NCBI GenBank assembly: GCA_964362625.1
Contig: CAYIFA010000001.1
Coordinates: forward strand, 2,994 to 66,993
Reading direction: 5' to 3'
DNA length: 64,000 nucleotides
From: an uncultured Candidatus Saccharibacteria bacterium
Lineage (GTDB): Bacteria > Patescibacteriota > Minisyncoccia > 1-14-0-10-42-19
A program made the position numbers and the translations under genes. Position 1 is the first letter of the stretch. The number at the start of each line of letters is the position of its first letter. Positions 30,913 through 51,207 of the stretch are shown piece after piece. Under the pieces are notes generated by a model. The model searched no databases, was not told the origin of the DNA, and saw only the letters and a list, made by a program, of their open reading frames with translations.

Positions 30913-30922
30913 CTGGCACGCC

Positions 30923-35408: not shown

Positions 35409-36377
35409 TCATTTGTAAGGATTAAATCTCGTTTCTTTTTTATTCCGGTTATCTTTATACCATTCGACGGTCATCCGTATGCCATCATTTAATGAAACGC
35501 GCGGGAAAAACCCATAAGAACTTATCCGTCTGGTATCAAGTATGCGCTTACGATCTCCTGACGGCTTAGAAGTATCTGAGGCCACCGCCGGTTTGGCTTT
35601 TGCATATTCAATAATCAAGTTAAGCAATTCCAGAATTTTAACACCGTGCCCGCTACCAATGTTTACCGGTTCGTATATTTCGCTTTCAGCCGCAAAAAGC
35701 ATTCCTCTGGCCACGTCTTCGGAATAAATAAAGTCGCGCTCTTGCATGCCGTCGCCGCTCAAAATTACAGCGTTCTCTCCGTCGCAAATTCTGCGTATGA
35801 GCGACGGAATAACCATCGCGCCCGCTGACCAAAAATCATCATAAGGGCCGTAGGTATTCGCCGGACGCACAATCGAGGTCTTGAAGCCGTATTCAATACG
35901 ATAAGCTTCGGCCTGCATTTCACCAGTCAATTTTGCCCATCCGGGGAACAAATCATTTGACGACGGCAACGCCTTACGGGCGTTATCTTCGTAAAAAACT
36001 TCAGCTGACGGATATACCCCGATAGAACTCGCGAGAAGATATCCTTTAACGCCGGCCTCGCGCGCGGCGCGCAAAAGATTTACGTCCAGAAGAATATTGG
36101 AATCTAGGAGCGTTGCGGGCCGGGTCTTGGCCATCACCGGCGAACCCTTAACGCAAAGCAGATTAAAAACATAATCCATGGTGCTACAAGCCCACAAGCA
36201 ATTCCGATAATCAAGCAAATCAAGGTTATGAAAAATGCATCCAGGATGCGCGCGCGACTTATGGTCTAAGGAAACCGCAAAAACCTGCGCCTCTTTAGCA
36301 ATAAGCATTTCGACCAGCGGAATTCCAATAAGCCCGGTCCCGCCAGCGACTAAAACTCTTTTCCCGCTAAAGTCCAT
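35409..36377 (-). CDS. NAD-dependent epimerase/dehydratase (Fcl-like), paralog
   Basis: VLVAGGTGLIG and VRPANTYGPYDDF motifs are present. It is a paralog of the gene at 47534..48520. Confidence 0.75.
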   Translation of the reverse strand: MDFSGKRVLVAGGTGLIGIPLVEMLIAKEAQVFAVSLDHKSRAHPGCIFHNLDLLDYRNCLWACSTMDYVFNLLCVKGSPVMAKTRPATLLDSNILLDVNLLRAAREAGVKGYLLASSIGVYPSAEVFYEDNARKALPSSNDLFPGWAKLTGEMQAEAYRIEYGFKTSIVRPANTYGPYDDFWSAGAMVIPSLIRRICDGENAVILSGDGMQERDFIYSEDVARGMLFAAESEIYEPVNIGSGHGVKILELLNLIIEYAKAKPAVASDTSKPSGDRKRILDTRRISSYGFFPRVSLNDGIRMTVEWYKDNRNKKETRFNPYK

Positions 36378-38440
36378 TAGAAATGCCCTCCTATCTCCGA
36401 ACCCATCGGTTGATTGCCGTAAAGATAGGCGCCGCGCTTATTGCCATACCAAACTACATAACGAAACCAATCTTCCCAACTCCACCATTTTTGCGAAGCG
36501 CGATCAATGCTGTAACGAAAACTGCCTTTCTCGAGCTCAACCTCTCGCATTGCGCGCTTACCCTGATAGAATTCGCGGAGATTGTAAGAACTCTCAAACA
36601 CCAAATCTTTATCGCAAAAAGGCAGTTTAACAAGAGCGCGATTGAAACCGATGGCTTCCTTAAGCAGCTGCGGGTCAACCACCAGCGGTCGTGAAGCAAA
36701 AAAACGAAAGAGCGCATTCTTGGCTTCAACATAGAACTGATCAAGTTTGCCTTCCCGGCAAAGTTTAATGAAGATAAACTCATCCGGCGGCCAATAGATA
36801 TTCAGCCATTCCTTAGACGGACATTGCTCAATCCCGCCCTGCTGGATGCTTTTGGCTTTGTCGGTAAAAAATGACCCGATTTCAGAGAGTATCGGAAACT
36901 CGGTTAAATCACCTTCGGTAAATACTTCTATTAAATCGCGGTAGCTCGCTAGGGTCGTTTCGGCGAGGATGATTAATGGAATCTGAAATATCTTGTCAAA
37001 ATGCAAGAGTGATGTTGTCCAACAAAATACCCGGGTGCGTACCCAATCTTCTCTGGACATCGATTTTGTTTCAATGACAATATCTTCCGTCTCTGGTATT
37101 CCGCCCGGATCTTCATCAATTACGCCGTGATAAATTACTGATTCTACTTCCACGGTTTTCAAACCGTATTTCTCAATGTATTCCGGTTCAGCCATTGGAG
37201 CATTAGGCATCATGGATAGATTGCCGAACTGAATACGATTATGCTGGCCTTCCTTGATAGTGAGGGCGATGCCGTCAGCAAACGAATCATATGTCTCTTT
37301 GGATAATGCAATGATCATGTCGCTATATGTTTCTATATTGGCCTCAACAAATCGTCGGTTAAGATTTATGAAGTCAATGGAAGAAATATTTTCACGGTCG
37401 ATGGCCTTAAGGACTTCGGGGCTCCGCGATTGAAACGCGAGAGTCACGCCCTTATTCAATCCAGCGTCAGCCAAAATTTTTTGCGCTTGAAAAATCCGTT
37501 CTTCGGCGTTTTTGGCGTTTTGCACCGAAAGCGCGTGCGGATAGCCATACTTGGCTTTCACTTCCGCCGCTTTGCGCGCGATGTCTACATCTCTGGGGAA
37601 AATGCCGAAGTTAGCGTCACAGCAAAAAATGAATTCAATTTTGCGTTCGGCAAACCATTCCAACTCCTTATAGAGCGTATCCAATTCAAACCGCATTACT
37701 TTGCTCTTGGTGTTTGAACCCCAATCGCAAAAAGTGCAGGAGAAAGGACAGCCGCGGTTAGTCTCCCACATAGCGAGCCACTTCTCGTTTTCGTTTTCCC
37801 GCATCAAAGCATCGAGTGCCCCATTTAGATAAGGCGACGGCATGCTAGTCAAGGACCGCATACGCCCCATCCATTCGGTCTGCCGGTATACTCCACTTTC
37901 AGCGATAAAACTTGTTGAAGGAATTAGATCCCAGTGGCCTCGCCCGAAAAAAGCTTTTTCCAGAATATGCACAAAAACCTGCTCTCCCTCATTGTGACAG
38001 CAAATATCAACAAACGGGTTTTCACGGAGGAACTTTTCGGAGCGGTCAGGAACTTCCGGTCCTCCGAAAACAGTAATAATATCGGGTTTTTTTCTTTTAA
38101 GCCGGCGCGCGATTTCCCGCGAAAGGTTTTTATTCCAGCAATATAAACTGAAGCCGACCAGATCAGAATCTTCCAGCTTCTCCACCGCTTCATCTACCGG
38201 CATACGCTTGTAAATCGGCGGCGCGAAAGTGTAACATTCGGGCCGCGCGAGATTGTGTTCGGCATAAACCTGCAAATCCGCCACCGAAAGCGGCAGATAA
38301 CTTTCTCCGGAAAAGCTGTTGTTGATTTGCACCAAACCGATATTCATCGCGCGGCTTGGCGCAAAAATCAAATTTTCGGTTTTTTCTGATCCCTTAAACT
38401 GGCTCTGCGGGCTGATGACCGGTAAAACTTGACTGACCAT
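36377..38440 (-). CDS. Cobalamin (B12)-binding radical SAM enzyme (class B radical SAM, candidate C-methyltransferase), paralog 1
   Basis: An N-terminal B12-binding-like domain, a CPFSCTFCDW CxxxCxxC radical SAM cluster motif and a long C-terminal extension are present. The alternative start MNIGLV is at 38347. Confidence 0.8.
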   Translation of the reverse strand: MVSQVLPVISPQSQFKGSEKTENLIFAPSRAMNIGLVQINNSFSGESYLPLSVADLQVYAEHNLARPECYTFAPPIYKRMPVDEAVEKLEDSDLVGFSLYCWNKNLSREIARRLKRKKPDIITVFGGPEVPDRSEKFLRENPFVDICCHNEGEQVFVHILEKAFFGRGHWDLIPSTSFIAESGVYRQTEWMGRMRSLTSMPSPYLNGALDALMRENENEKWLAMWETNRGCPFSCTFCDWGSNTKSKVMRFELDTLYKELEWFAERKIEFIFCCDANFGIFPRDVDIARKAAEVKAKYGYPHALSVQNAKNAEERIFQAQKILADAGLNKGVTLAFQSRSPEVLKAIDRENISSIDFINLNRRFVEANIETYSDMIIALSKETYDSFADGIALTIKEGQHNRIQFGNLSMMPNAPMAEPEYIEKYGLKTVEVESVIYHGVIDEDPGGIPETEDIVIETKSMSREDWVRTRVFCWTTSLLHFDKIFQIPLIILAETTLASYRDLIEVFTEGDLTEFPILSEIGSFFTDKAKSIQQGGIEQCPSKEWLNIYWPPDEFIFIKLCREGKLDQFYVEAKNALFRFFASRPLVVDPQLLKEAIGFNRALVKLPFCDKDLVFESSYNLREFYQGKRAMREVELEKGSFRYSIDRASQKWWSWEDWFRYVVWYGNKRGAYLYGNQPMGSEIGGHF

Positions 38441-38569
38441 TATTTAGTCTCCTTAATTTGTGGCGACTTTCGAATAGTTTTTATCAGCGAACTTGTTTCT
38501 ATGTCAATCCTTACATTTTTTTAGCTGCTTAGTCAAATGCCGCTAAATCGGTAACGCGTATCGGGGCCA

Positions 38570-38599
38570 AATAAAAAGCCGGCGTAGAATACGCCGGAC
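38570..38599 (-). terminator. Rho-independent terminator
   Basis: aaataaaaag precedes an 8-bp stem (ccggcgta-gaa-tacgccgg). Confidence 0.65.
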
Positions 38600-38611
38600 C
38601 TGAGCCAACCT

Positions 38612-39562
38612 TCACCGATTGACTTTTTTGGGCCTCCAAACAACATAGGAGTGCGCGTCGTGATATAATCCTCCGCATTCAACCTTATGCGCCTTAATTA
38701 TTTCAATCTTACCTTCGGCTTCAAGAGCGTAAAGGCGCGTTAGATATCCGCGCAAATAACTTCTGCGTAGATTATGCTTTAGCGCCAAATAATCGCTTAG
38801 ATTGTTGGGACGGCAAAACTCCAGAAAAGCATCCACATGCACAAAAATAGCCGGGGACTTCTGCAGACTAAATTGCAGAAATTTCTCAAACCTCTCCCCC
38901 AACTGCTCAAGTGACCATATGGCTAAAAATGCGCTATTGGGTCCGACGGCTAAATCATCATCCGGGACAAACATATCAAACAGCTGGCCGGTAATTTTGT
39001 AACCGCGCTTTTCGGCAAGCAGACGGATTATTTCAAGAGGAGGGCTAACCCATTCTAAACCATGGAGCTTTTTATCGGGATACATCCGCGCCAACTCAAC
39101 TAAATTATAAGCTGGCCCGCAGCCAAATTCAAAAATGTGTTCTGCGCCGGATAAATATTCTTTAAAGAGCCAAGCGCGTAAAACAGTAAATAAGTTAAGC
39201 TCAAAATTAGGATCTTGCGGCATGACATAATCGCCGAACAAACGCACTGGCTGATTCGGTCTTATGTATTTTGGGATCAACTCATGAACATCAAAACCGC
39301 CGGCCGTAAAACTATCGAGGTTTTCTTGCCAGCCTTTTTCCCAACGGCCCACAGCGTTTGGACCGGACAAACCCAAATCCGAAGAATCAATTTTGTCAAG
39401 AATTTGGATAATGATTTTGTCGCGCTCGCCTGCTGTCAAATTACGATACGAAAAGTCAAACCGAAAATCCGCGAGGTGTTCCGCAGCTTCGGCGATCGAT
39501 ATGCCAAGCAACCGAGAGAAACCAGCTGGTTCTAGCTGAAGCGGAAAACCGAAATCCATCAT
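38612..39562 (-). CDS. Class I SAM-dependent methyltransferase
   Basis: A motif I (IFEFGCGPAYNL) is present. The start is trimmed to MMDFG. Confidence 0.7.
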   Translation of the reverse strand: MMDFGFPLQLEPAGFSRLLGISIAEAAEHLADFRFDFSYRNLTAGERDKIIIQILDKIDSSDLGLSGPNAVGRWEKGWQENLDSFTAGGFDVHELIPKYIRPNQPVRLFGDYVMPQDPNFELNLFTVLRAWLFKEYLSGAEHIFEFGCGPAYNLVELARMYPDKKLHGLEWVSPPLEIIRLLAEKRGYKITGQLFDMFVPDDDLAVGPNSAFLAIWSLEQLGERFEKFLQFSLQKSPAIFVHVDAFLEFCRPNNLSDYLALKHNLRRSYLRGYLTRLYALEAEGKIEIIKAHKVECGGLYHDAHSYVVWRPKKVNR

Positions 39563-39663
39563 TAGCCTCCCACGGAATGTCAATATGCTTATGCTATTTA
39601 TAATGGTACGTAAAAATCTAATCCTGTCAACAAAAACCTCCGGCCGAAACCGGAGGCAAGAGA

Positions 39664-40713
39664 TCAAAATGGACCTTTAAAGCGGTGCTCGTAATTATAA
39701 AACTGCTCTCCGGACAAATCAGCTGCTTCTAGGCCAAGTTTCTTCTCAATTACGCGAATGATGTTAATGGCGGTTGGGTAGAAAGCGTCTTCGAGCGGCC
39801 GGGTAGTCGGACAAGGCGTATGCGCAAACCCGATTCGGCTAACCGGCGACTTCAAATGACCAAAGCATTTTTCAGAAACAACAGCCGCAACTTCCGCGCC
39901 AAATCCAAAAGGGACCCAGTCATAATCGGCAACAACACAATGGCCGGTTTTCATAACCGATGTCGTGATAGTTTCTTCATCTAGCGGAGCGATTGTCCGC
40001 GGGTCAACTATTTCAACGCTGACATTGCGCTTGGCTAACACCCGTGCGGCTTCACGCGCTTCCACATTCATCCACGATGTAGCGACAACTGTAACGTCGG
40101 AGCCTTCGCAGAGAATCTTAGCTTGGCTTAACGATTCAACATATGGTTCCTCCGGTACTTCGCCTTCCTGCCAATAAAGCCAACGATGCTCAAAAAACAA
40201 AACCGGATTATCGTCGCGGATGGCAGAAATCAATAATCCTTTGGCGTCATATGAGGTGGTCGGCATTACTACTTTCAATCCGGGTATATGCGCAAAAACA
40301 GAGTGCATCGTCTTGGAGTGCTGGAAGCCCTGCCCCCAACCGCGACCGATCATCGACCGGATGACTATTGGAACTTTTAATCTTCCGCCGGATCCATACC
40401 GAAGGCTCGAAACCATATTGGCGAGCTGATTCATGGCCAGCAGAAGAAAATCCGCTCGGATGTGGACATTAATCGGACGAAAACCATTTATGGCAGCGCC
40501 CAAACCAAAACCAAGCAAACTATCTTCGGCGAGCGGGGTAGAGAAACACCGGTTTACGCCGAAACGTTCACTCAATCCCAAAGTGCTTCCGTAAGTACCC
40601 TTATGATCATCAACATCTATGCCGTAAACGAAGATTTTCGGATCTCGTTCCATTTCCTGGATATGCGCTTCACGGATCGCCTCACAAAATGTTATGACAC
40701 GCTGGTTAGTCAC
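39664..40713 (-). CDS. TPP-dependent 2-oxoacid dehydrogenase E1 beta subunit-like (transketolase C-terminal/pyrimidine-binding)
   Basis: A 349-aa protein of E1-beta/transketolase-C architecture. It overlaps the alpha-like gene by 8 nt. Confidence 0.8.
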   Translation of the reverse strand: MTNQRVITFCEAIREAHIQEMERDPKIFVYGIDVDDHKGTYGSTLGLSERFGVNRCFSTPLAEDSLLGFGLGAAINGFRPINVHIRADFLLLAMNQLANMVSSLRYGSGGRLKVPIVIRSMIGRGWGQGFQHSKTMHSVFAHIPGLKVVMPTTSYDAKGLLISAIRDDNPVLFFEHRWLYWQEGEVPEEPYVESLSQAKILCEGSDVTVVATSWMNVEAREAARVLAKRNVSVEIVDPRTIAPLDEETITTSVMKTGHCVVADYDWVPFGFGAEVAAVVSEKCFGHLKSPVSRIGFAHTPCPTTRPLEDAFYPTAINIIRVIEKKLGLEAADLSGEQFYNYEHRFKGPF

Positions 40714-41677
40714 AAAGCACCCCTTTTCTTAATTCAGAGGCATCCGGATAGTTGGCAGATTTGGCAGCTTCTATGCTGTTCCGGATTTGTTCATCAATCT
40801 CTTCTTTAAGATCCAGCAATTCTCCTTCTGTAATTCCATACGCGAGCAATTTAACAAACTGTAAATAAAGCGGATCTCGTTCTAACCACTTTCCAAATTC
40901 ATGTCTGGTCCGGTATCCGGCCCGAAAATCTTCGCCTATGCCAACATGTTCAAGATAACGATAGTAACGTAAATGCATAAAGTAGGGCCTTTCGGTTTGA
41001 CGCATAAAGCGCAATGCACCCAGAGCCGCCAAATAAATCGTTTCGGCATCAGTTGTTTCGGAAGAAAAAATTCCGCATTGAAAACGAGACACGATATCGG
41101 TAATTGAATTGTAACCGTGGCGTTTTGCCGCCGGGATATGAACGGCTAATCCGTTATCCTCGCATACAAACAAAACCGGCAATTTCATGAGAGTAGCGAT
41201 ATTTAACGATTCCCAGAAATTTCCCTCGTCAATCGCGCCATCGCCGAAAAATACCGCGGAAACATTGCCATTGCCCTCCTGTTTTTTGGCAAAAGCCGCA
41301 CCAACCGCCACTGGAATTGTGCTCGCCACTACTGCCGAAACTACCATTAAGCCATGATTTGGCGCCGAAAGATGCATAGAGCCAGCTTTACCTTGGGCCA
41401 TACCGGTAACTTTCCCGTACATTTCGGCAAAAAACTTGTCGGTTTCCATGGTTTTAGCCAGATATAAAGCATGACTGCGATAAGTTCCGAACACCTGATC
41501 GCCGGGCCTTAACGCCTGGCACACACCGGCTGAAATCGCTTCCGATCCCATCGACATATGCATTGGCGTTTTCATTTCATCCTCGGGATAATGCTTAATG
41601 ATTGCCTCCTCGGCTTTACGAATAAGATAAATTCTTCGATAAAGCTCAAGACTAGTCTTCCGGTCAACTAACATCAT
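40706..41677 (-). CDS. TPP-dependent 2-oxoacid dehydrogenase E1 alpha subunit-like
   Basis: A GDGAIDEGNFWESLN TPP-binding motif is present. Length is 323 aa. Confidence 0.8.
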   Translation of the reverse strand: MMLVDRKTSLELYRRIYLIRKAEEAIIKHYPEDEMKTPMHMSMGSEAISAGVCQALRPGDQVFGTYRSHALYLAKTMETDKFFAEMYGKVTGMAQGKAGSMHLSAPNHGLMVVSAVVASTIPVAVGAAFAKKQEGNGNVSAVFFGDGAIDEGNFWESLNIATLMKLPVLFVCEDNGLAVHIPAAKRHGYNSITDIVSRFQCGIFSSETTDAETIYLAALGALRFMRQTERPYFMHLRYYRYLEHVGIGEDFRAGYRTRHEFGKWLERDPLYLQFVKLLAYGITEGELLDLKEEIDEQIRNSIEAAKSANYPDASELRKGVLCD

Positions 41678-41866
41678 CCGGCTCCTTTCGTGTCCGTCTA
41701 TTCCAAATTATTTCAAAGGCCGCTTATTCTGTTATTGATACTATCAACGCCGAGATTAATGTCAATATTTAATGGTTCGAACCTGCATGCAATTATAAAT
41801 TCAAACAGCAATAAAACCCCCTAAGCAGGCGGTCCTTATTGCACGGAACCAAAATGCCTAAAAAAA

Positions 41867-42262
41867 CTATGGCCCCCAATAAATACTTGAATTTCGTAAT
41901 GACCCGTCACTATTTACCTTCATTTTTATGACTACCGGTGAAGTATCGTCTTTGTCTCCCGGCCTTATTTCTTTTCTCTCAGTAAACCATCTACCGTAAT
42001 TTGCAGAACGATTCGGTTTATATCTCCCTCGAATTTCATACAGCGTAGAACCGTCTTCGTGTTCAAACTCTCTATAGCCTTCTAATATAAAAGTTGAAGC
42101 TTTTGCTTTATCGGAAGCAAGTTCTTTAATTACCGGGTCTTTTATTGAATGTGGCAGGCCATCAATACTCGCCTCCCACTTCCATTCTACGTTTGAAATA
42201 CTTTCAGGTTTTCTAACATCACCACCAGCTTCATCGTCATTATAAAAACCTTCTTTACTCAT
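41867..42262 (-). CDS. Hypothetical protein
   Basis: A 131-aa ORF inside an AT-rich insert. No recognisable motif was found. Confidence 0.3.
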   Translation of the reverse strand: MSKEGFYNDDEAGGDVRKPESISNVEWKWEASIDGLPHSIKDPVIKELASDKAKASTFILEGYREFEHEDGSTLYEIRGRYKPNRSANYGRWFTERKEIRPGDKDDTSPVVIKMKVNSDGSLRNSSIYWGP

Positions 42263-42495
42263 GTTGGGCTATATATAACCAATAAAAATTATTTTATGTC
42301 ATTTTGAACTCGTTATCAACTCCGAATTGTGGATAATGTTAAAGCCGCCATCCAATGACAAAATGAACATGCCGATGTTATCGCACCACTCTCTATGCAA
42401 TATCCGATATTGCACAACATTGATAGAGCCACTGCGGTTTGTTTTCGCACAAAAAGCGGCCTGTGTTAAGCCGCTTTCGTTTTAATAGACGGAGT

Positions 42496-42594
42496 TTATC
42501 CGGCATAATACTCGCGCCAGTATTCGAGAAGGTCCGAAAGGGTTTGCTCAAACGGAATTGTCGGCTGCCAGCCGGTTTGATTGAAAAACTTCAT
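42496..42594 (-). pseudogene. 3' remnant of a GDP-mannose 4,6-dehydratase gene (duplicate of the 3' end of gmd at 43823..44803)
   Basis: About 135 nt (42466..42597) are roughly 95% identical to 43792..43923. The reverse strand encodes MKFFNQTGWQPTIPFEQTLSDLLEYWREYYAG followed by a stop, the same as the Gmd C-terminus. It is followed by part of the same terminator hairpin. Confidence 0.6.
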
Positions 42595-42613
42595 GGTACT
42601 TCGCTTCAACTCA

Positions 42614-43150
42614 TTAATACAAATGCTCCTGAACGAATGGAATAAGAGCTGACACAACCGCATGGCGATAAAGTTCTGTACGATCTATAACGCCCTTTGT
42701 TAGCAAGCCGATTGCACCCATATTTTGTTTTGAATTATTTTGCCTAAATACTATATCACTTGCGTCTCCGACTTCCTTACCATCTTCTAACACAAGTTTA
42801 CGGAAAATTGGTGGGGCAAGAAAAGTACATGTTTTCCCTTTGCCGACTTTTCCTTCTTTAGATTCAACGACAATCCACGCAAATTCGTGAAGCTCATTAT
42901 TCACATCTTCAACTCCACCCTCAAGACCGACATAAAAATCTGCTCCGGGAGAAATTCTTCTTGCGTCAGCCACTCGATTGATTGCTCCTTTAAGCGTTTC
43001 CCTATCAGAAAGCGGCTGGTCTGAAATGCCAGATGAAGCTTTCACGCTACCGAATTCAAATCGGGTTTCTGGAAAAACAGAACTAAATGCGCGTCTGACG
43101 GTTTCAATCTTAACAGGATTTATTGAAGCTATAATGACAATCTTATCCAT
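42614..43150 (-). CDS. yjjX: Inosine/xanthosine triphosphatase (non-canonical purine NTP phosphatase, YjjX family)
   Basis: It is collinear with YjjX (NPVKIETVRRAF, VANARR, ADFYVGLEGG, GAIGLLTKGVIDRTELYRHAVVSALIPF). Confidence 0.8.
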   Translation of the reverse strand: MDKIVIIASINPVKIETVRRAFSSVFPETRFEFGSVKASSGISDQPLSDRETLKGAINRVADARRISPGADFYVGLEGGVEDVNNELHEFAWIVVESKEGKVGKGKTCTFLAPPIFRKLVLEDGKEVGDASDIVFRQNNSKQNMGAIGLLTKGVIDRTELYRHAVVSALIPFVQEHLY

Positions 43151-43775: not shown

Positions 43776-43812
43776 AAAAACGGCTTATTTGGTTAAGCCG
43801 CTTTCATTTTAA
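43776..43812 (-). terminator. Rho-independent terminator downstream of gmd
   Basis: aaaaaa precedes a stem (cggctta-tttggt-taagccg) followed by ctttcatttt. Its 3' half is included in the duplicated segment at 42466..42484. Confidence 0.6.
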
Positions 43813-43822
43813 AATACAAGTT

Positions 43823-44803
43823 TTATCCGGCATAATACTCGCGCCAGTATTCGAGAAGGTCCGAAAGGGTTTGCTCAAACGGAATTGTCGGCTGCCAGCC
43901 GGTTTGATTAAAAAACTTCTCGGAGGATGGAATCTGCATTGAAACATCTGATGGACGTAATCTTTTTGGATCGACTTCGACCCGAATATCATTTCTTAAA
44001 GACAACGCCAAAAGCTTACCCAACATATCGCCGACAGTCATCGTAACATTGCCGCCGATGTTATAAACTTCGCCGGCTTCGCATTTTTCGGTCAAGACCC
44101 AGTAAGCCCGGACTGCATCGCGGACATCCATGAAAGTTCTGACGCTTCTAAGGTTGCCGACTTTCACAATGGGCTCTTCTTGCAAACCGGCTTCAATCGC
44201 CGCTATCTGCTTGGCAAAGGATGATTCCACAAAAACCTCGCCGCGGCGCGGACCGGTATGAGTAAACATCCTGGAGCGTATAGTTTTAATCTCCCAGCTG
44301 GTCCAATACTGAAAAGCCAGCATGTCTTCGGCCACCTTGCTTACGGCGTAAGGAGAGGCCGGACGAAACGGGTTTTCTTCGGTAATGGGGATTTCGTCTT
44401 CGCGCACCTGACCGTACACTTCCGAGCTGCTGCAAACATGAACAATCGGATCATAATCCGAAGACTGTTTAACGCCCTTGATTACCTCAAGCAAATTACA
44501 GGTTCCGATGACGTTTACGTCGAGAGTTGCCGTGGGATAGATAAAGCTAGCATCAACGTAAGATTGAGCGGCCAAATGAAATATTTTTTTAGGCCGCCAA
44601 GTATCGAGCACCCTTTTTAGTGAACCGGGGTCCGTTAGGTCGCCGTATTCTAATGTCAAAGAATTAAGAATATGCCGGATGTTATTTTTAGGAGAACGCC
44701 AGCGCACAAGCCCAATAATTTTAACTTCCGGATTATGCGCTACAATATAATCCGCCAGATGACTGCCGACGAATCCGGTAATGCCGGTAATTAGCACATT
44801 CAC
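43823..44803 (-). CDS. gmd: GDP-mannose 4,6-dehydratase
   Basis: It has the Rossmann motif ITGITGFVGSHL, a catalytic YxxxK (YAVSKVAED), and the Gmd-type motif RMFTHTGPRRGEVFV. Confidence 0.85.
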   Translation of the reverse strand: MNVLITGITGFVGSHLADYIVAHNPEVKIIGLVRWRSPKNNIRHILNSLTLEYGDLTDPGSLKRVLDTWRPKKIFHLAAQSYVDASFIYPTATLDVNVIGTCNLLEVIKGVKQSSDYDPIVHVCSSSEVYGQVREDEIPITEENPFRPASPYAVSKVAEDMLAFQYWTSWEIKTIRSRMFTHTGPRRGEVFVESSFAKQIAAIEAGLQEEPIVKVGNLRSVRTFMDVRDAVRAYWVLTEKCEAGEVYNIGGNVTMTVGDMLGKLLALSLRNDIRVEVDPKRLRPSDVSMQIPSSEKFFNQTGWQPTIPFEQTLSDLLEYWREYYAG

Positions 44804-44885
44804 GGCCCTTCTCCTCTAATGAAAACTGGGAGTCCCTTACTCTGCGGTCATGTTATCACCTGTGAAATATTTTCGCAAGATCTTT

Positions 44886-45878
44886 TCAAGTCTCTTGAGT
44901 TTTATATATTATCTGGCTGCCGCTTTTATCGAAATCAAAATCAACGCGCTGAAATTTCGCGAGGGAAGAAGAAATTTTAGGATGAAGTTCCGGATTGGCA
45001 TACACCAATAAAAATCCTCCGCCGCCAGCACCCAACAGCTTTCCGCCAGTAGCGCCGGCTTTTTTGGCTCTGTCGTATAAACTATCTATCAAGGGGTTAG
45101 AAATTTTTGAGGCAAGAGTGCGTTTAATTCGCCAGCTTTCATCAAGCAGGCGACCGAATTCATCAAAAAAATTATTACCGCTCTTTATAATTTTTTCAGC
45201 TTCGTCGGCAATCGCGAGCATAGCTGTAAGCTCTTTCTCTTTTTTCGGCGTATTAGCGATCTGCTCTTTAGCGATCTCGGAAGCAGTCCGCGGCATGCCA
45301 ATATAAAATAACATCAGGTGACGATTAAGCGCATCGGAGACCGAGTCAGCGATATTTACCGGACTGACGCTAAGGCCATCAGATTTAAATTCAATCACGT
45401 TAAACCCGCCGAAAGCCGCGGCAGTCTGATCTTGCGACCCGACATTCTCTTGAATAATATTTTGCTCAATATGAATCGCGTCATTCGCCAATTTAATTTT
45501 ATCAGTCGGTTGTCCGGTCAAAGCGCATAAAGAATTAAGAAAACCGACCGTAAAAGCGCTTGATGAGCCGAGCCCGCTCCTTGCCGGCCAGTCAGCATTA
45601 TGCTGCATCTCAATACGCTCATTGCCCAAATTCAAATATCGTAAACATTCTCGTACAGACGGATGACGTATTTTAGATAGGTCATTACGCTTTTCTTGAA
45701 AGGTATAACGAATACGATAACGGTAAACAAAAAGCGGAGACAAAAAACGCGTAGTGATATAGCAATACTTGTTAATGGTAGTGCTTATTACCTTGCCGCG
45801 ATTTTGGTTAAACCACACCGGATAATCGGTGCCGCCGCCAAAAAACGATATACGAAACGGAGTTCTAGATATGACCAT
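44886..45878 (-). CDS. GHMP-family sugar kinase (HddA/fucokinase-like)
   Basis: An RISFFGGGTDYP N-terminus and a PARSGLGSSSA GHMP ATP-binding motif are present. Confidence 0.75.
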   Translation of the reverse strand: MVISRTPFRISFFGGGTDYPVWFNQNRGKVISTTINKYCYITTRFLSPLFVYRYRIRYTFQEKRNDLSKIRHPSVRECLRYLNLGNERIEMQHNADWPARSGLGSSSAFTVGFLNSLCALTGQPTDKIKLANDAIHIEQNIIQENVGSQDQTAAAFGGFNVIEFKSDGLSVSPVNIADSVSDALNRHLMLFYIGMPRTASEIAKEQIANTPKKEKELTAMLAIADEAEKIIKSGNNFFDEFGRLLDESWRIKRTLASKISNPLIDSLYDRAKKAGATGGKLLGAGGGGFLLVYANPELHPKISSSLAKFQRVDFDFDKSGSQIIYKTQET

Positions 45879-45927
45879 GTTGACTATTAAAGTATAAAAT
45901 TTACCATAAGTTTATGCAAAATTAAAG

Positions 45928-45993
45928 ACCTGCCTGCCGCCTGCCTATCCTGTCTACCGGCAGGCAAGCGGCAGACAGGGCAGGCGCAGGCGG
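45928..45993. promoter_or_regulatory. GC-rich nested imperfect palindrome built from CCTGCC/GGCAGG units in the divergent intergenic region
   Basis: The paired arms include CCTGTCT/AGACAGG and GCCTGCC/GGCAGGC. The element lies upstream of a TATAAT-like box and the GGAGG RBS of the HemN-family gene. Confidence 0.4.
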
Positions 45994-46077
45994 TTGATAA
46001 ACCGGCGCGGATATAATATGATTTGTTAAGTCAACATTGGTTCTCTGAGAACAAAATAGCGACCGGGGAGGGACAAA

Positions 46078-47472
46078 ATGGGTTCAAACGTGGCAAATGA
46101 TCCTCGTTTACTTATCGAACGTTATACGCAACTAAAAACCAAGTACAACCGCGACGCCAAGTGGTACACCGAATACCCGCACAAGCATTTTTGGTCTGAA
46201 AGTTTCGGTGAAGAGGACCTTAAAGACGCTTTGCGCAATTTCTTCCTGACCAGAAACGATCCGACTCTACTTTATTTCCATATGCCTTTCTGCAACAAAC
46301 AGTGTTATTTTTGCACTTGTCATACCGAAATTTCACAGGATTACGAAGATATCTTGAAGTACATGAAATCGGCATACATGGAAATAGAGCTATACCGCAA
46401 ATTCTTCGAGACACACGATGTTAAGCCCAACATCCGCGAGGTGCATTTTGGCGGCGGTACGCCTTCAAATCTTAAAGAAAAAGATTTCGGTGAATTGAAA
46501 AACGCTCTTAGCGCCTTCACCGACTTCGGCCAAGTTGAGGAATTCGCGATGGAGATAGACCCGCGCTACGTTAAACCGGACAAACTGCATTTCTTTGCCG
46601 ACTGCGGCCTTAATCGAGTGTCATTCGGCATTCAAGATTTTAATGACAAAGTGATGATGGCGGTTAACCGCCGACAACCGGCTAAAATTATTGAAAATCT
46701 GTTGACGCCGGATGTCCGCGCGAGATTTCAGAGTATCAATTTCGACATTCTCTGCGGACTTCCCTTTCAAACCCGCGAATCATTCAAGGCAACCATCGAA
46801 AAAGTCATTGAACTGACGCCCGACCGCATCGCACTTTATTTTACATCCAAACCCAATGTTAAATTCTCTCCGCACTGGCTTAAGATGCCGCAAGGTGTCA
46901 TACCGAATGAAATCGACAAGAAAATAATGTTCGTGGACGCCTTAGAAATGCTGCGAGATGCCGGCTACATCCGCACCGGCTACGACATGTTTGCCAAGGC
47001 CACCGATAAAGTGGCGAAGGCTCTGGATACCGGCCAGACCACCTGGAATTCATTCGGTTCAACTCCTGGCCGGTGCCTCGATTATCTCGCCCTTGGCGTG
47101 CATAGCTATGGCCGCCTGGGACCAGAGATCTACTACCAAAACGTCTATGAACTCCAGCATTATGAGGGTTTGCTTACTGCCGGAATGTTTCCGGTGTTTC
47201 GCGGGCACAAACTGGGTAAAGACGACCAAATCCGCCGTGACGTTATTGTCACGCTAAGGGTATACTTCGACATTCATTTCGGGACAATGGAAAATCGTTA
47301 TCAGATAAACTTTCGCGATTACTTCCAAAAAGAACTTGCGATTTTGCAAGAATACGCCGACGACGAGCTGATCGAAATCAAGCCGGATGGCATCGTGATT
47401 ACCGAACTCGGCAAACAGTTTGCCAATCTCATCTGTGCAGTTTTTGACAAATACGCCAAAGATCGTAAATAA
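46078..47472 (+). CDS. hemN: HemN-family radical SAM protein (oxygen-independent coproporphyrinogen III dehydrogenase-like)
   Basis: A CNKQCYFCTC CxxxCxxC motif, an HFGGGTPS motif, RVSFGIQDFNDKV and a C-terminal IRRDVI region are all collinear with E. coli HemN. Length is 464 aa. Confidence 0.8.
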   Translation: MGSNVANDPRLLIERYTQLKTKYNRDAKWYTEYPHKHFWSESFGEEDLKDALRNFFLTRNDPTLLYFHMPFCNKQCYFCTCHTEISQDYEDILKYMKSAYMEIELYRKFFETHDVKPNIREVHFGGGTPSNLKEKDFGELKNALSAFTDFGQVEEFAMEIDPRYVKPDKLHFFADCGLNRVSFGIQDFNDKVMMAVNRRQPAKIIENLLTPDVRARFQSINFDILCGLPFQTRESFKATIEKVIELTPDRIALYFTSKPNVKFSPHWLKMPQGVIPNEIDKKIMFVDALEMLRDAGYIRTGYDMFAKATDKVAKALDTGQTTWNSFGSTPGRCLDYLALGVHSYGRLGPEIYYQNVYELQHYEGLLTAGMFPVFRGHKLGKDDQIRRDVIVTLRVYFDIHFGTMENRYQINFRDYFQKELAILQEYADDELIEIKPDGIVITELGKQFANLICAVFDKYAKDRK

Positions 47473-47480
47473 TCTGACAA

Positions 47481-47516
47481 ATAAATAACCGTTCCGGTAT
47501 TACCGGAACGGTTTTT
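47481..47516. terminator. Bidirectional terminator between convergent genes; repeat family 2, copy 1
   Basis: A perfect 11-bp stem (aaccgttccgg-tatt-accggaacggt) followed by ttttt, with an ataaataa run on the 5' side. Confidence 0.7.
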
Positions 47517-47533
47517 CTAATCTCATTAGCAGT

Positions 47534-48520
47534 TTAGCCATCACGAAAGGCATCATAACGATGGCCAAGCTTGTCGCGGTTCCCTTTATACCACAAAACC
47601 GTATCGCCTATTCCAAACTCCAAAGAAATTGTCGGATGAAATCCATAACTTTTGGCGCGGGTCGTATCAAGAACTCTTCGACGGTCACCTCGTTCGCCTG
47701 CAGATTTCTCAGCATTCCATTTTATCTCCGGCTTAACTTCCAAATTATCAACTATTAGCCGAACCAACTCGCGAATTGTGGCGCCCTTACCGCTGCCGAG
47801 GTTAATCGGCTGATATATTTCGTTTTCGGCTGTAAAAAGCATGCCGCGCGCCACGTCTAAAGCATTTATGAAATCGCGCTCGGAGGTTCCATCGCCACGA
47901 ACTTGCAGAGGGTTTTCTCCATCTACCGCCCGTCTAATTAAAGACGGAACCACCATCGCGCTCTCCGCGTCAAATGCATCATAGCGCCCATAAGCATTAG
48001 CCGGACGGACTATAGAAACTTTCCAGCCATATTCAATGGCAAAAGCTTCTGCCTGCAGTTCGCCCATGCGCTTGGCCCAGCCGGCAAATTTATCATTCTC
48101 CGATGGATTCGCTTTCCACAAATCATCTTCAACCAAAAGTGGTGCCGGATGATATGCGCCGTAAGTGCTCGTGTATAAATACCCTTTTACCTTGCGTCTT
48201 CGCGCCGCTTCCATCAAATTGGTATTGAATTGCAGATGAGTAGTAAACATGGTCGCCGGCTTAGTTTTAGCCATAACCGGCGAACCCTTTACCCCCAGCA
48301 GATTAAAAACATAATCAACGCCGCCGCATGCCATCATACAATTATCAAAATGGCGTAAATCAGCGCAGATAAAATGCACACGCTTATTTGCTGTCTGCGG
48401 TCTATCCAGCGAAGCAACTTGGACAAAAGCGCCGCGCGTAAGCAGCATATCGACTAGCGGTCTGCCGATCATACCGGTGCCGCCGGCAACCAGAACTACT
48501 TTACCGTCGAAGTTATACAT
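47534..48520 (-). CDS. NAD-dependent epimerase/dehydratase (Fcl-like), paralog
   Basis: VLVAGGTGMIG and VRPANAYGRYDAF motifs are present. The start is trimmed to MYNFDGK to remove a 58-aa spurious extension. Confidence 0.75.
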   Translation of the reverse strand: MYNFDGKVVLVAGGTGMIGRPLVDMLLTRGAFVQVASLDRPQTANKRVHFICADLRHFDNCMMACGGVDYVFNLLGVKGSPVMAKTKPATMFTTHLQFNTNLMEAARRRKVKGYLYTSTYGAYHPAPLLVEDDLWKANPSENDKFAGWAKRMGELQAEAFAIEYGWKVSIVRPANAYGRYDAFDAESAMVVPSLIRRAVDGENPLQVRGDGTSERDFINALDVARGMLFTAENEIYQPINLGSGKGATIRELVRLIVDNLEVKPEIKWNAEKSAGERGDRRRVLDTTRAKSYGFHPTISLEFGIGDTVLWYKGNRDKLGHRYDAFRDG

Positions 48521-48542
48521 GCCCACCTCCTCTTGGTTTTTA

Positions 48543-49268
48543 TCAGTAGATGAGCGGCCGAAGTTCAATGGCTTCGCGCTTAGCATTTTTGCCAGACCAA
48601 AATGCGACTCCCTTATTGATATATGAAACCGAGAAAAGCGGACGCGAACGAGTCGGCGATAAATTCGGATGCGAACCATGCACCAAATCACCATGCAATA
48701 CGAGCATACTGCCTTTCTTGAAAATCAAATCAATCCTGGGGTATTTCCCATACCGCATGGAATCGCGTATCACCTTGCCGGGATTTGCTCCGGGCGCTTC
48801 ATGGAAGCTGATAGTTGGCCGGGCATCCAGTAGTCCTTCTTTATGAGAACCGGCGTAAACATACAAACTGCCATTTTCGCGATTAGCATCCTCCAAAAAA
48901 ATGTTGATGGTGATATACGCGCCATGTTCAGCTTTAGGATAGGCGTTATCTTGATGCGGATTCCAAGCTTGCATCGCGTATTTGCTTCCGGCTTTTTTAA
49001 AGAGCACTTGGCTCATCAGAGCGACAACCTCGCGTCCCTGCAATTCCTCAAGGATAGTAACCACCCACCACTTACGCATAATACTCCGTACTGACTCCGA
49101 CTCACGGTCTAAATTCATAATCGCCGAAAAATCCGCATCCGCATGATTTTCGATCTCAGCTTTAATCGCATCGCACTCTTCCGGCTGATAGATATTATCA
49201 ACGATCAAATAACCAAAACGGTGATAAAAAGCAGTATCTACTTCATATAAGACTTTTAGCTTTTCCAC
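48543..49268 (-). CDS. Phytanoyl-CoA dioxygenase (PhyH)-family Fe(II)/2-oxoglutarate oxygenase
   Basis: An HxD motif (NPHQDNAY), a YAGSHKEG (GSH) motif and a distal His (LHGDLVHGS) are present. Confidence 0.7.
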   Translation of the reverse strand: MEKLKVLYEVDTAFYHRFGYLIVDNIYQPEECDAIKAEIENHADADFSAIMNLDRESESVRSIMRKWWVVTILEELQGREVVALMSQVLFKKAGSKYAMQAWNPHQDNAYPKAEHGAYITINIFLEDANRENGSLYVYAGSHKEGLLDARPTISFHEAPGANPGKVIRDSMRYGKYPRIDLIFKKGSMLVLHGDLVHGSHPNLSPTRSRPLFSVSYINKGVAFWSGKNAKREAIELRPLIY

Positions 49269-49340
49269 ATTAACCCCTCTTTCGTATATATGCTTTTACA
49301 ATTCTTCACGAATACTACTCCGAACAAAAATGTTAGTCAA

Positions 49341-49385
49341 GTTAAAAAAACCGTTCCGGAAGCACCGGAACGGTTATCTAATCTC
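49341..49385 (-). terminator. Rho-independent terminator; repeat family 2, copy 2
   Basis: aaaaaaa precedes the same 11-bp stem (accgttccgg-aagc-accggaacggt). It shares the 3' flank tctaatctc with copy 1. Confidence 0.65.
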
Positions 49386-49395
49386 GCTTGCGTGT

Positions 49396-51207
49396 CTAAT
49401 CTTTCAATTGTCGAAGAATGTCATAAACCCCAAGAACTTCATAACGCGAACGCCAGTAAGCGGACTCGCAAAGGATTTCTTCCGTGGCCTGCATTAGTCG
49501 CAACGGCGCTTCATTATCGCCAAGCTTCTTCAAACACAGACCGTAAAAAGTGTGCCCTAGTGGGTTTTCCGGGGCAACGCGCCGACAAATATCCTCAAGC
49601 ATTTTTGCGATTTTGGCGAGTTTGACAGGATCAGCAATACCGATTATTTTTTCATAATTAATCTTGTAATCCACTAAAAACCAATAATCGCCTATATCCT
49701 TAGCATCGGGGACAGAGTCGGGATCGGCCACCTTAAACAAATCAACAAAATCCCTAGACCGAGTCTTTTCGCTGGATTCGCGCAGATATTGCCGGCCATG
49801 CGGCCCAATTAAGAAGGCGACATCTTTAGTTTGCAGACTCTCCTCAATCAACCCCTGCTCTACCATCGCGTAATATATTTCAGTTGACGGCAGAGGGTTT
49901 AGGGCTTGAAGCGGATACCAATCATAACAAAGCTCAAGAGCAAAATTTACCGTATCGGAAATCATGCGCACCGTTTCATTCGGAAATCCCAGAATCAGAA
50001 ATCCTTTTACAAATATATGCGGATATTCGTCAATGAATGTTTTAGATTTTCTGAAAGTCGCGAGTGTCCCTGGTTTATGCATGGCCCGGAGCATCTTCTC
50101 ATTGCCGGATTCGATTCCGAGATTAAAGCCGATGCATCCTGATTCAGACATCGCTTGCATAATTGCCGGCGTAATTGCCGCCGAAATCAAGCCGTTGGAA
50201 GCATCCCAGGTTATGTCCATTTTTCTTTCGGTTATTTCATTGAACAAGGCCATCGCTCTTTTACCGTCAAAGAGCAGGTCGTCATCAAGCCAGGTAATGT
50301 GCCTGATCCCATATTTTTCGCTCAACTCCTGAATTTCATCGACAACGCTCTTAACGCTTCTCTCGCGTACTCCTGGTCCATTGAAAGAAGCAACTGAACA
50401 AAAACTGCAATGCGCCCGGCAACCGCGGTTGGAAAGAACGCAAGCGGCCCTACGCCCTTGCCGCATATAAACATAAGACCCAATTTGTCCTCGCGCGTCA
50501 TAAAGCTCCACCGGTAAATCATGATATAAAGGTGCTGCGTCAATTTCGGCCGGACCCGGAGTAGCCCGCTCCTCAATAGCAACGTAATCGCCGCCAATCA
50601 TAGTTCCGATTTGCGCCAAAACTTCTTCGCCCAGATATCCATTTACAAAATCCAGAGTATCCGGAAAGCTTTTATCGCATTCGTATACGCCGATAAAATC
50701 AAGGTGCGGACAATCTTCCATGGCCAACTTTCTGGCGTTAGATAAATGAACTCCGCCGCCAAAAACCGTCAATTCCGGGTCATGCTCTTTGATGGCCGCG
50801 GAAACCAGCTTAATCGCGCTATGCGACATGGTAAACATTCCGGAGAGTCCGACCAAGTGCGGCTGAAATGAGCCGAGACGTTCAATTAACTTCTCCTTCC
50901 AGACACCGAAATAAAAGCTTTCGCGCGCGATATGCGCGTAGTCAAGAACCTCAAGATTAAGATCCAAGATGTCGGTCTGGTAGCCGCGGTTTGTGAGATC
51001 GCGGCAAAGCACTCCCACCCCATAAGGCTGATAGGCCCAGTAGCGATTGCGTATAGCGCGGTCTACAATAAAAGCATGTTCTTCAATGTGCGGAAGCTGA
51101 ATCATAAGAATGCGCGTGCATGGCGTCTTAACCACCGCTTTCAGCTTACGCGCGATTTTCAGCCGTGCATCTTCGCCCTGAGTACTTACCGGCAACTTCC
51201 AGGTCAT
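49396..51207 (-). CDS. Cobalamin (B12)-binding radical SAM enzyme, paralog 2
   Basis: An N-terminal B12-binding-like domain and an SNRGCRAHCSFCSV CxxxCxxC motif are present. Length is 603 aa. Confidence 0.8.
   Translation of the reverse strand: MTWKLPVSTQGEDARLKIARKLKAVVKTPCTRILMIQLPHIEEHAFIVDRAIRNRYWAYQPYGVGVLCRDLTNRGYQTDILDLNLEVLDYAHIARESFYFGVWKEKLIERLGSFQPHLVGLSGMFTMSHSAIKLVSAAIKEHDPELTVFGGGVHLSNARKLAMEDCPHLDFIGVYECDKSFPDTLDFVNGYLGEEVLAQIGTMIGGDYVAIEERATPGPAEIDAAPLYHDLPVELYDARGQIGSYVYMRQGRRAACVLSNRGCRAHCSFCSVASFNGPGVRERSVKSVVDEIQELSEKYGIRHITWLDDDLLFDGKRAMALFNEITERKMDITWDASNGLISAAITPAIMQAMSESGCIGFNLGIESGNEKMLRAMHKPGTLATFRKSKTFIDEYPHIFVKGFLILGFPNETVRMISDTVNFALELCYDWYPLQALNPLPSTEIYYAMVEQGLIEESLQTKDVAFLIGPHGRQYLRESSEKTRSRDFVDLFKVADPDSVPDAKDIGDYWFLVDYKINYEKIIGIADPVKLAKIAKMLEDICRRVAPENPLGHTFYGLCLKKLGDNEAPLRLMQATEEILCESAYWRSRYEVLGVYDILRQLKD

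Follow-up and report, generated by a model that had tools for sequence, protein, structure and literature searches.

Three radical S-adenosylmethionine genes of a Patescibacteria glycan locus probably belong to a recurrent sugar-tailoring cassette

A stretch of 64,000 nucleotides (the window) of contig CAYIFA010000001.1, a Patescibacteria (Candidate Phyla Radiation, CPR) contig from a 0.1-μm metagenome of Hainich groundwater, was analysed for three genes of radical S-adenosylmethionine (SAM) enzymes, here named rSAM_A, HemN-like and rSAM_B; fragments of identical protein sequence are deposited as 'Patescibacteria group bacterium'. These genes are probably parts of one conserved, horizontally spread cassette, which would tailor a nucleotide-activated sugar, most likely derived from a heptose or a hexose, for a cell-surface glycan. 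Exactly three proteins among the large open reading frames (ORFs) of the window had a CxxxCxxC motif, one motif each, with the same coordinates as in the initial annotation, which had called two of them cobalamin (B12)-binding and one HemN-type; both B12-binding domains were indeed above their Pfam thresholds, and so was the Radical_SAM domain of rSAM_A. The neighbours named there were recovered as well, namely short-chain dehydrogenases/reductases (SDRs), a PhyH dioxygenase and, for the SAM methyltransferase, an FkbM methyltransferase and a weak methyltransferase-like ORF. The span then proposed (36377-51207) does hold the three genes, but the functional unit was larger, reaching from approximately 33.7 kb to at least 64 kb, where the window ends.

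The enzyme that could be placed most closely was rSAM_A, whose nearest characterised relatives were TokK, ThnK and CysS, and not GenK or Fom3 as first suggested. A search of the PDB returned TokK (7kdx) with E = 3.4e−97 and CysS with E = 2e−54. The identity between rSAM_A and TokK (38% over 431 aligned residues) exceeded that between CysS and TokK (29%), two enzymes lying within one node of a published similarity network (10.1101/2021.07.10.451909). The cluster motif of rSAM_A, RGCPFSCTFCDWGS, equals that of TokK (pattern RGCPxSCxFCDWGS), and its cysteines align with C206, C210 and C213 of TokK. Moreover, two tryptophans are common to TokK, ThnK and CysS and absent from the other characterised class B methylases, one below the cobalt (W76) and one within the active site (W215) (10.1101/2021.07.10.451909). 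Both were kept in rSAM_A, where SLYCWN aligned with SCYVWN of TokK and FCDWGS with FCDWGS, and both (W102 and W240 in the family alignment) were invariant in 25 members of the rSAM_A family. The AlphaFold2 model of rSAM_A (predicted local distance difference test, pLDDT, 85; predicted template modelling score 0.86) matched TokK in Foldseek with template modelling (TM) scores of 0.80/0.83 and a root-mean-square deviation of 2.7-3.0 Å over approximately 645 columns, the cobalamin domain superposing, so that all three domains match (the Rossmann cobalamin domain, the radical SAM barrel and the large C-terminal domain that TokK, ThnK and CysS also have); for CysS, TM was 0.69-0.76. Nevertheless, Arg280 of TokK, which contacts the substrate carboxylate, was replaced by Ser, so a different substrate is expected and rSAM_A would be TokK-like rather than a TokK orthologue. 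Its score against the KedN5 family of NCBIfam was 234.3 bits for a cut-off of 700, covering model positions 61-412 of 624, which marks it as related to that family and outside it.

The stop codon of rSAM_A overlaps the start codon of the adjacent reductase gene, SDRa (TAATG at 36377), and SDRa is therefore translationally coupled to rSAM_A. The same overlap was seen in two of the loci fetched for comparison (numbered with the prefix L), L002 and L003, while the pair was kept at 53-57% identity in L002, L004 and L005, and the pairing was found in other phyla. On the basis of sequence and model, rSAM_A is predicted to be a cobalamin-dependent C-methyltransferase of the TokK/ThnK/CysS subgroup that acts on an sp3 carbon of a nucleotide-sugar intermediate, and by analogy it may transfer more than one methyl group. 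TokK and ThnK carry out C6 alkylation of carbapenems and CysS the alkoxy extension of cystobactamids, all three being cobalamin-dependent sequential methylases. Unlike them, rSAM_A lies among nucleotide-sugar enzymes instead of beta-lactam or nonribosomal peptide synthetase (NRPS) genes, and the handle of its substrate is likely a nucleotide instead of pantetheine.

The HemN-like protein was collinear with HemN, as had been noted before, aligning with E. coli HemN (coproporphyrinogen III dehydrogenase, CgdH; 1OLT) over residues 19-462 (E = 1.6e−68), and the profile of its clade reached 419 bits against the same structure. The two share the N-terminal YxxYP region, the C-terminal domain and the CxxxCxxCxC motif. 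The equivalents of the residues that serve the cluster and the first SAM were kept (Y56, H58, C62, C66, C69, C71, GGGTP, E145, Q172, R184 and D209), but RNFQGY (308-313) was changed to WNSFGS, I329 to Y and A243 to T. Among housekeeping HemN sequences, RNFQGY and the Ile were found in 76 of 76 (R and N in 75 of 76), with A243 invariant or nearly so. F310, Q311 and I329 are reportedly contacts of the second SAM in HemN. This second SAM serves as a radical relay (PMC10114771).

The tree and the gene neighbourhoods agreed with these replacements. In a neighbour-joining tree, 77 housekeeping HemN sequences were split from all cassette-type sequences with a bootstrap of 100/100. The gene context was scored in 118 loci, each flanked by 6 kb of sequence or more and taken from genome and metagenome scans, by the presence of an rSAM_A or rSAM_B homologue within 10 kb. 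Such a neighbour was found in none of 98 loci with canonical (RNFQG) HemN, in 15 of all 20 non-canonical loci and in 10 of the 10 WN-type loci among the latter (Fisher's exact test of canonical against all non-canonical loci, p = 4e−15); since the loci are phylogenetically non-independent and the housekeeping set is mostly proteobacterial, both this value and the split in the tree overstate independence. Orthologues of the WN clade (39-51% identity) were found inside the cassette in at least 10 loci and were co-directional with it wherever the gene map was read. In particular, in Sungiibacteriota, Elusimicrobia and Magnetospira the gene runs in the same direction among radical SAM, SDR and GHMP-kinase genes, and in L005 it directly adjoins a B12 radical SAM gene. 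A DPANN homologue has glycosyltransferases and acyl-modifying enzymes on either side. In a library clustered at 50%, the top 30 or so representatives carried non-canonical motifs, canonical RNFQG starting below approximately 262 bits. Furthermore, a 2.4-kb contig (P0141) encodes a single protein of 742 aa in which a cassette-type HemN-like part is fused to a PhyH dioxygenase domain, an oxygen-sensitive and an oxygen-dependent catalyst thus being joined in one chain.

The HemN-like protein is therefore predicted, from its sequence, to be a HemN paralogue that took on a new function in the sugar cassette and not an enzyme of heme synthesis, standing apart from HemN/CgdH by its altered RNFQGY, I329 and A243 positions, its separate clade, its B12 radical SAM and sugar-gene neighbours and its hosts, which include CPR and DPANN. 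To our knowledge, CPR and DPANN organisms generally lack heme synthesis, and no heme genes were found in the 64-kb window. Of the class C methyltransferases, which had been brought up as HemN-like enzymes, NocN (9p2u) aligned over the radical SAM core only, at residues 51-290 of the profile, with E = 2e−24; the protein as a whole was closer to true HemN, and its NCBIfam ChuW/HutW score was 115 bits for a cut-off of 400. Class C enzymes (NocN/NosN, TbtI, Jaw5, C10P and ChuW/HutW), which have no agreed sequence signature, similarly use HemN-family cores in non-heme chemistry, while the HemN-like protein retains the N- and C-terminal regions of HemN itself.

rSAM_B has a class B architecture, formed by a B12-binding Rossmann domain, a CxxxCxxC barrel and a C-terminal helical domain, but it is without a close characterised relative, and from sequence and model no reaction is assignable to it. 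Its best NCBIfam matches were two P-methyltransferase families far below their cut-offs, Sden_1168 (139 bits for 575) and PhpK (101 bits for 600). Its score against 'B12_rSAM_oligo' (TIGR04295), a family name that hints at a link to oligosaccharides, was 35 bits for 400. Searches of the PDB with the single sequence and with a profile gave generic class B and MiaB/RimO-type matches only. The AlphaFold2 model (pLDDT 89) matched TsrM, OxsB, MgmA, AprD4, TokK and CysS in Foldseek at 12-18% identity and TM of approximately 0.5-0.6, all the best structural matches sharing the class B two-domain layout; AprD4 itself does without cobalamin. Orthologues with 41-43% identity were present in L002 and L005, and the family has more than 1,200 matches and occurs in CPR, Elusimicrobia and Nitrospira. 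The class B methylation expected of both B12 enzymes is predicted for rSAM_A, in the manner of TokK and CysS; for rSAM_B it would be one option among several. A phosphonate or phosphinate glycan, an idea that arose from the P-methyltransferase matches, was rejected because the window holds no phosphoenolpyruvate mutase; the sequence at 57623-58162 is a 179-aa ORF or fragment resembling PK and HpcH barrels.

When the fetched loci were searched by BLAST with the proteins of the window, the same set of genes was recognised in them. It comprises the HddA-like GHMP kinase, the GMD-like 4,6-dehydratase, rSAM_A with SDRa, a second Fcl-like SDR and rSAM_B, together with PhyH, NUDIX, DJ-1/PfpI, cupin, E1 alpha/beta, DegT and AAA_33 kinase genes, and in a subset of loci the HemN-like gene. 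The lineages concerned were CPR, Elusimicrobia, Nitrospira-like bacteria, Alphaproteobacteria, Cyanobacteria and Bdellovibrionota, with loci in Ca. Sungiibacteriota (CP066690.1), Kovacikia minuta, Elusimicrobia, Magnetospira thiophila, Bdellovibrionota, Yanofskybacteria and Desulfuromonadales, as well as the metagenome loci L089-L092 and L103. At every locus examined, in more than seven phyla, the orthologues of all three radical SAM genes stood in sugar or glycan contexts, which supports the earlier proposal of radical tailoring of sugars. The flanking genes point to surface glycoconjugates: the cassette adjoins genes of the GT9 heptosyltransferase family in a wastewater contig, lies downstream of NusG-like and CpsB genes (the head of a capsule locus) in one of two further long contigs, and is flanked by a PMT_2/GT-C gene in Elusimicrobia, by GT41 in Magnetospira thiophila and by NeuB in several loci. 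SIS_2 and NTP_transferase genes were present in L002 and L004. The rarity initially ascribed to such genes in surface-glycan loci holds for the literature and not for nature, as rSAM_A had 6,913 matches at E ≤ 0.001, of which the best 120 were all at least 52% identical and came from many phyla.

Six related loci (the near-duplicates L002 and L003, L005, L006, L089 and L091) carried a fourth radical SAM type, rSAM_C, of approximately 445-455 aa and with a sub-threshold B12 domain, which accompanies the HemN-like gene and was not found in the window. Besides, in L010 (a metagenome-assembled genome of Desulfuromonadales, 4070-13482) and L095 a HemN-like subtype with RHFMGY stands beside three to four consecutive B12 radical SAM genes; no cassette sugar genes were detected around these two loci, which may represent a distinct radical-SAM-rich pathway. 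A radical SAM cluster beside nitrogenase paralogues in Elusimicrobia (10.1101/765248) was considered and set aside as a different system, there being no NifH-like gene here.

The left end of the window carries the genes of RNase III, NusB and RNase HII, and from approximately 4 kb to 64 kb nearly all genes serve glycan biosynthesis. This island of approximately 60 kb encloses the three radical SAM genes and contains three NeuB paralogues, CMP- and other nucleotidyltransferases, approximately 12 SDR epimerases, dehydratases and reductases, GT2 and glycerophosphotransferase-like genes, an aminotransferase, a sulfotransferase and three thiamine diphosphate (ThDP) enzymes. No flippase, polymerase or ATP-binding cassette (ABC) exporter (Wzx, Wzy) was recognised between 4000 and 64000, where the check for membrane proteins was a crude scan, and no membrane-spanning segment was found in nine ORFs with no or weak family match by crude hydropathy (19-residue window, mean of at least 1.6). 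Such missing export and polymerase genes are odd for a glycan locus of 60 kb.

These observations bear on what else the genes could be. One alternative is that the HemN homologue truly works as a coproporphyrinogen III dehydrogenase, or otherwise handles heme, and came to lie in the island by chance, the sugar pathway using the B12 enzymes only. It would fit with the collinearity with 1OLT throughout, N-terminal region included, with the occurrence of unrelated housekeeping genes such as UvrA in the island, and with the score of 355.7 for the hemN equivalog TIGR00538, 31 bits over the cut-off of 324.95. It would fit too with the orientation of the gene in the window, on the strand opposite to the cassette, with a promoter-like site and a strong terminator-like hairpin behind it, so that it may be transcribed apart from the cassette there. 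The position of its WN-clade orthologues within the cassette, the lack of cassette radical SAM neighbours at all 98 canonical HemN loci, the replacement of RNFQGY and I329, the PhyH fusion and the general want of heme synthesis in CPR and DPANN make this alternative highly improbable. Another possibility is that the product is not a surface glycan but a secondary metabolite able to diffuse, either glycosylated or derived from a sugar, like the aminoglycosides, orthosomycins or nucleosides. The characterised relatives TokK, ThnK, CysS, KedN5, AviB1/AviB2, GenK and Fom3 all come from antibiotic pathways, and the export genes and membrane proteins not recognised by the above scan of nine poorly annotated ORFs would agree with such a product. 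However, surface-glycan genes crowd the window (three NeuB, CMP-transferases, GT2, glycerophosphotransferase-like, sulfotransferase), cassettes elsewhere adjoin the GT9, PMT_2/GT-C, NusG-like and CpsB, GT41 and NeuB genes listed before, there was no sign of polyketide synthase (PKS), NRPS, aglycone, resistance or regulator genes, and the cassette was found in genomes of approximately 1 Mb, all of which makes a secondary metabolite an unlikely product.

More weight is due to the idea that rSAM_B, and possibly the HemN-like protein, carry out non-methylating radical chemistry on the sugar, leaving rSAM_A as the only enzyme that makes a C-methyl sugar. The options would be dehydration (AprD4), ring contraction or rearrangement (OxsB), epimerisation, C-C cyclisation and oxidative decarboxylation. 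The model of rSAM_B resembled OxsB and AprD4 to about the same degree as TsrM, MgmA and TokK, its NCBIfam scores were far under every cut-off, and the HemN-like protein is nearer over its full length to the decarboxylase HemN than to NocN. On the other side, most characterised class B enzymes are methylases, the B12 domain of rSAM_B is above the Pfam threshold and its best NCBIfam matches are P-methyltransferases; we lean against this idea, although it is a substantial possibility. Several further points weigh against a common sugar-tailoring cassette. The NCBIfam matches of its sugar enzymes were all below the equivalog cut-offs, and 'heptose' is hence a best guess only. rSAM_B was about equally far from methylases (TsrM, MgmA, PhpK-like) and non-methylases (OxsB, AprD4). 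PhyH requires oxygen, to which radical SAM enzymes are sensitive. Moreover, that the source genome lacks a heme pathway and takes up cobalamin is an expectation drawn from CPR genomes in general. To these points must be added the high hemN score, the orientation of the gene and the relatedness of the loci already described. Even so, a cassette for the radical tailoring of a surface sugar was considered the probable reading.

In such a cassette, the GHMP kinase and the RfaE-domain-II-like nucleotidyltransferase would activate the sugar, and the 4,6-dehydratase would form a nucleoside diphosphate (NDP)-4-keto-6-deoxy intermediate, onto which E1-type ThDP enzymes might graft a short acyl branch in the manner of AviB1/AviB2. 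Amination, hydroxylation, epimerisation and reduction would fall to DegT, PhyH and several Fcl-like SDRs. In the step proposed for rSAM_A, a first SAM would methylate cob(I)alamin and a second would be cleaved at the [4Fe-4S] cluster to a 5′-deoxyadenosyl radical, which would take a hydrogen from the sugar, or from its branch, at an sp3 carbon, the substrate radical then receiving the methyl group from methylcobalamin. This methylation would possibly be repeated, as in all characterised members of the subgroup, after which SDRa, coupled to rSAM_A, would reduce a keto group. rSAM_B would act as a second cobalamin-type radical enzyme, with no reaction assigned. The HemN-like protein would still make the 5′-deoxyadenosyl radical, in a pocket remodelled around the second SAM and the substrate site, and might act on a sugar intermediate in one of two ways, by desaturating a carboxyalkyl side chain or decarboxylating it oxidatively in the style of HemN, or by transferring methyl or methylene in the style of class C enzymes. 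A more daring version, which we regard as doubtful, would combine the E1 branch, repeated TokK-like methylation (to ethyl or isopropyl) and HemN-type decarboxylation to a vinyl group in one hyper-modified higher-carbon sugar. The HemN step would then consist of hydrogen abstraction beta to the carboxylate on a side chain borne by the sugar, followed by decarboxylation. We know of no ethyl or isopropyl groups in glycans. If this version were true, it would give the first non-tetrapyrrole substrate of a true HemN-type decarboxylase and the first surface sugar built by radical SAM enzymes.

Parts of this pathway have counterparts in known sugar systems. GenK and GenD1 (gentamicin) and Fom3 (fosfomycin) show that cobalamin-dependent radical enzymes can methylate a sugar carbon or a CMP-linked substrate, but they were absent from the NCBIfam and PDB sequence matches of rSAM_A and rSAM_B and are thus not their nearest relatives, and they serve antibiotic pathways whereas the cassette lies in surface-glycan loci. 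In avilamycin, the E1 alpha/beta pair AviB1/AviB2 installs the C-4 acetyl branch of eurekanate, the C-4 acetyl or hydroxyethyl branch coming from pyruvate, and the C-4 branched octoses of paulomycin and aldgamycin are related (PMC4753412). The cassette likewise always has an E1 alpha/beta pair or fusion beside the 4,6-dehydratase and SDRs, and by analogy the E1 pair at 39664-41677 contains candidates for an AviB1/AviB2-like attachment of a two-carbon branch. Unlike the AviB systems, the window has two different E1 systems; Gram-negative yersiniose, for its part, uses the unrelated flavoprotein YerE instead of an E1. With the capsule heptose pathway of Campylobacter jejuni, in which GmhA/HddA/GmhB/HddC make GDP-D-glycero-alpha-D-manno-heptose and dehydratases, epimerases and reductases follow, the cassette shares the HddA-like kinase, the GMD-like dehydratase, Fcl-like reductases and the RmlC-like epimerase. 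The cyanobacterial version adds SIS (GmhA-like) and NTP-transferase/HAD genes, as in heptose activation, while no SIS isomerase was found in the window. We know of no heptose pathway with radical SAM, ThDP-E1, PhyH, DJ-1 or NUDIX parts. The features of the cassette are collected in Table 1.

Table 1. Positions, family matches and counterparts of the cassette features (window coordinates, except for rSAM_C, given in the loci named; identities at the protein level)
Feature	Position	Strand	Family matches and motifs	Counterparts and remarks
FkbM methyltransferase	30884-31933	+		
SDR	33707-34681	-	Pfam Epimerase	
RmlC-like 3,5-epimerase	34674-35327	-	Pfam dTDP_sugar_isom	
SDRa, GDP-fucose-synthase-like epimerase/reductase	35409-36377	-	Pfam Epimerase; NCBIfam GDP-L-fucose synthase 136 bits, below cut-off	
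rSAM_A, 687 aa	36377-38440	-	Pfam B12-binding 43.3 bits (cut-off 32.1), Radical_SAM 42.1 bits; CPFSCTFC at residue 231	
Class I SAM methyltransferase-like ORF, weak	38612-39667	-	Methyltransf_25 E = 0.006, below threshold; motif FEFGCGPA	Lineage-specific, no homologue in the other cassettes compared
ThDP E1 beta	39664-40713	-	Pfam Transket_pyr/Transketolase_C	E1 beta and alpha 45-50% identical to the fused E1 of cyanobacterial cassette L004
ThDP E1 alpha	40706-41677	-	Pfam E1_dh	As E1 beta
NDP-sugar 4,6-dehydratase	43823-44803	-	Pfam GDP_Man_Dehyd 262 bits; NCBIfam gmd 167 bits, below cut-off	53-61% identity to cassette genes of L004, L006
GHMP sugar kinase, HddA-like	44886-45878	-	Pfam GHMP_kinases_N and GHMP_kinases_C; NCBIfam HddA (heptose 7-phosphate kinase) 145 bits for 600	46-55% identity in L002-L006
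HemN-like, WNx[LFM]G clade, 464 aa	46078-47472	+	Radical_SAM 66.9 bits, HemN_C; CNKQCYFC at residue 72	
Hairpin resembling a bidirectional terminator	47487-47513		12-bp stem, 7 GC pairs, T-runs on both strands (consensus scan only)	Between the convergent HemN-like and SDRb genes
SDRb, second Fcl-like epimerase/reductase	47534-48520	-	Pfam Epimerase; NCBIfam GDP-L-fucose synthase 107 bits, below cut-off	Paralogue of SDRa; 328 aa by the L001 gene call
PhyH-family Fe(II)/2-oxoglutarate dioxygenase	48543-49268	-	Pfam PhyH 90.5 bits	44-49% identity in L002, L005
rSAM_B, 603 aa	49396-51207	-	Pfam B12-binding 42.4 bits (cut-off 32.1), Radical_SAM 67.6 bits; CRAHCSFC at residue 263	
NUDIX	51324-51890	-	Pfam	NUDIX, DJ-1/PfpI and cupin: 41-65% identity in L002, L005; present too in L090, L092, L103
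DJ-1/PfpI	51973-52479	-	Pfam	As NUDIX
Cupin	52480-53235	-	Pfam	As NUDIX
AAA_33/KTI12-like P-loop kinase	53247-53876	+	Pfam	51-52% identity in Yanofskybacteria cassette L008 and in L103
Fused E1 alpha-beta ThDP enzyme	53911-55800	-	Pfam E1_dh, Transket_pyr, Transketolase_C	57-67% identity to E1 beta of L002, L005; E1 type of CPR and Elusimicrobia cassettes
Fcl-like SDR	58587-59582	-	Pfam/NCBIfam	Upstream cassette genes 58587-63684: 41-63% identity to genes of L002, L004, L005
adh_short	59579-60457	-	Pfam/NCBIfam	As above
NUDIX	60414-60971	-	Pfam/NCBIfam	As above
SDR	61031-61963	-	Pfam/NCBIfam	As above
DegT aminotransferase	62006-63169	-	Pfam/NCBIfam	As above
RfaE-domain-II-like sugar-1-phosphate nucleotidyltransferase	63166-63684	-	RfaE domain II 97.5 bits for a cut-off of 181.5	As above
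rSAM_C	L002 15056-16423; L005 15661-16998; L006 7608-8930			

Some other features of the window were recorded along with the cassette. The NeuB paralogues were located at 4918-5928, 12024-13568 (a fusion with a cupin) and 17551-18633, accompanied in this region by two CMP-transferase-like genes and by UDP-GlcNAc 2-epimerase, ROK kinase, HAD phosphatase and transketolase-like genes, a set which suggests several distinct nonulosonic or related acids in one small genome. A full-length UvrA gene (18724-21567) lies midway through the glycan island and shares the strand of the adjoining genes, and a fusion of NusB with a NUDIX hydrolase domain was found at 1743-2633. At 29926-30912 (+), next to the FkbM methyltransferase, an ORF with no Pfam family has a C-terminal half that resembles PhyH below threshold (E = 0.003). 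Between 41700 and 43800, the G+C content falls to 0.39 from approximately 0.45 in a patch with an orphan ORF of 131 aa, a DUF84 NTPase and approximately 670 bp of non-coding DNA, which separates E1 alpha from the 4,6-dehydratase within the cassette. Furthermore, at 55895-57626 a fusion of a cytidylyltransferase-like domain with adenosine 5′-phosphosulfate kinase stands directly upstream of the sulfotransferase and may form with it a compact module for sulfate activation and glycan sulfation. For the seven ORFs without a family match, and for 57623-58162, low-stringency Pfam searches yielded sub-threshold hints only, and no Rfam families (cobalamin riboswitch included) or tRNAs were found in the window.

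The cassette recurs across many phyla and yet is undescribed in the literature searched, where no account of it was found, subscription journals being thinly covered. Radical SAM tailoring of sugars has so far come from antibiotic pathways, as with GenK, GenD1, AprD4, OxsB and DesII. If the cassette does what is proposed, the same chemistry, with up to four radical SAM enzymes per cassette, would widely build surface glycans in uncultivated lineages, among them CPR, DPANN, Elusimicrobia, Nitrospira-like bacteria and Omnitrophota. Cultured carriers are Kovacikia minuta CCNUW1, Magnetospira thiophila and Magnetospirillum sp. UT-4. There is also a consequence for metabolic reconstructions, in which hemN labels on the cassette clade can fake signals of heme biosynthesis in organisms without the pathway; cassette-type paralogues in NCBI records (P0126, P0130, P0140, P0154, P0204 and P0229) are indeed named 'oxygen-independent coproporphyrinogen III oxidase'. 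Finally, if the proposal is true, C-alkylated or otherwise radical-modified surface sugars would be new to glycan chemistry, and CPR episymbionts would have to scavenge cobalamin for the decoration of their own surface.

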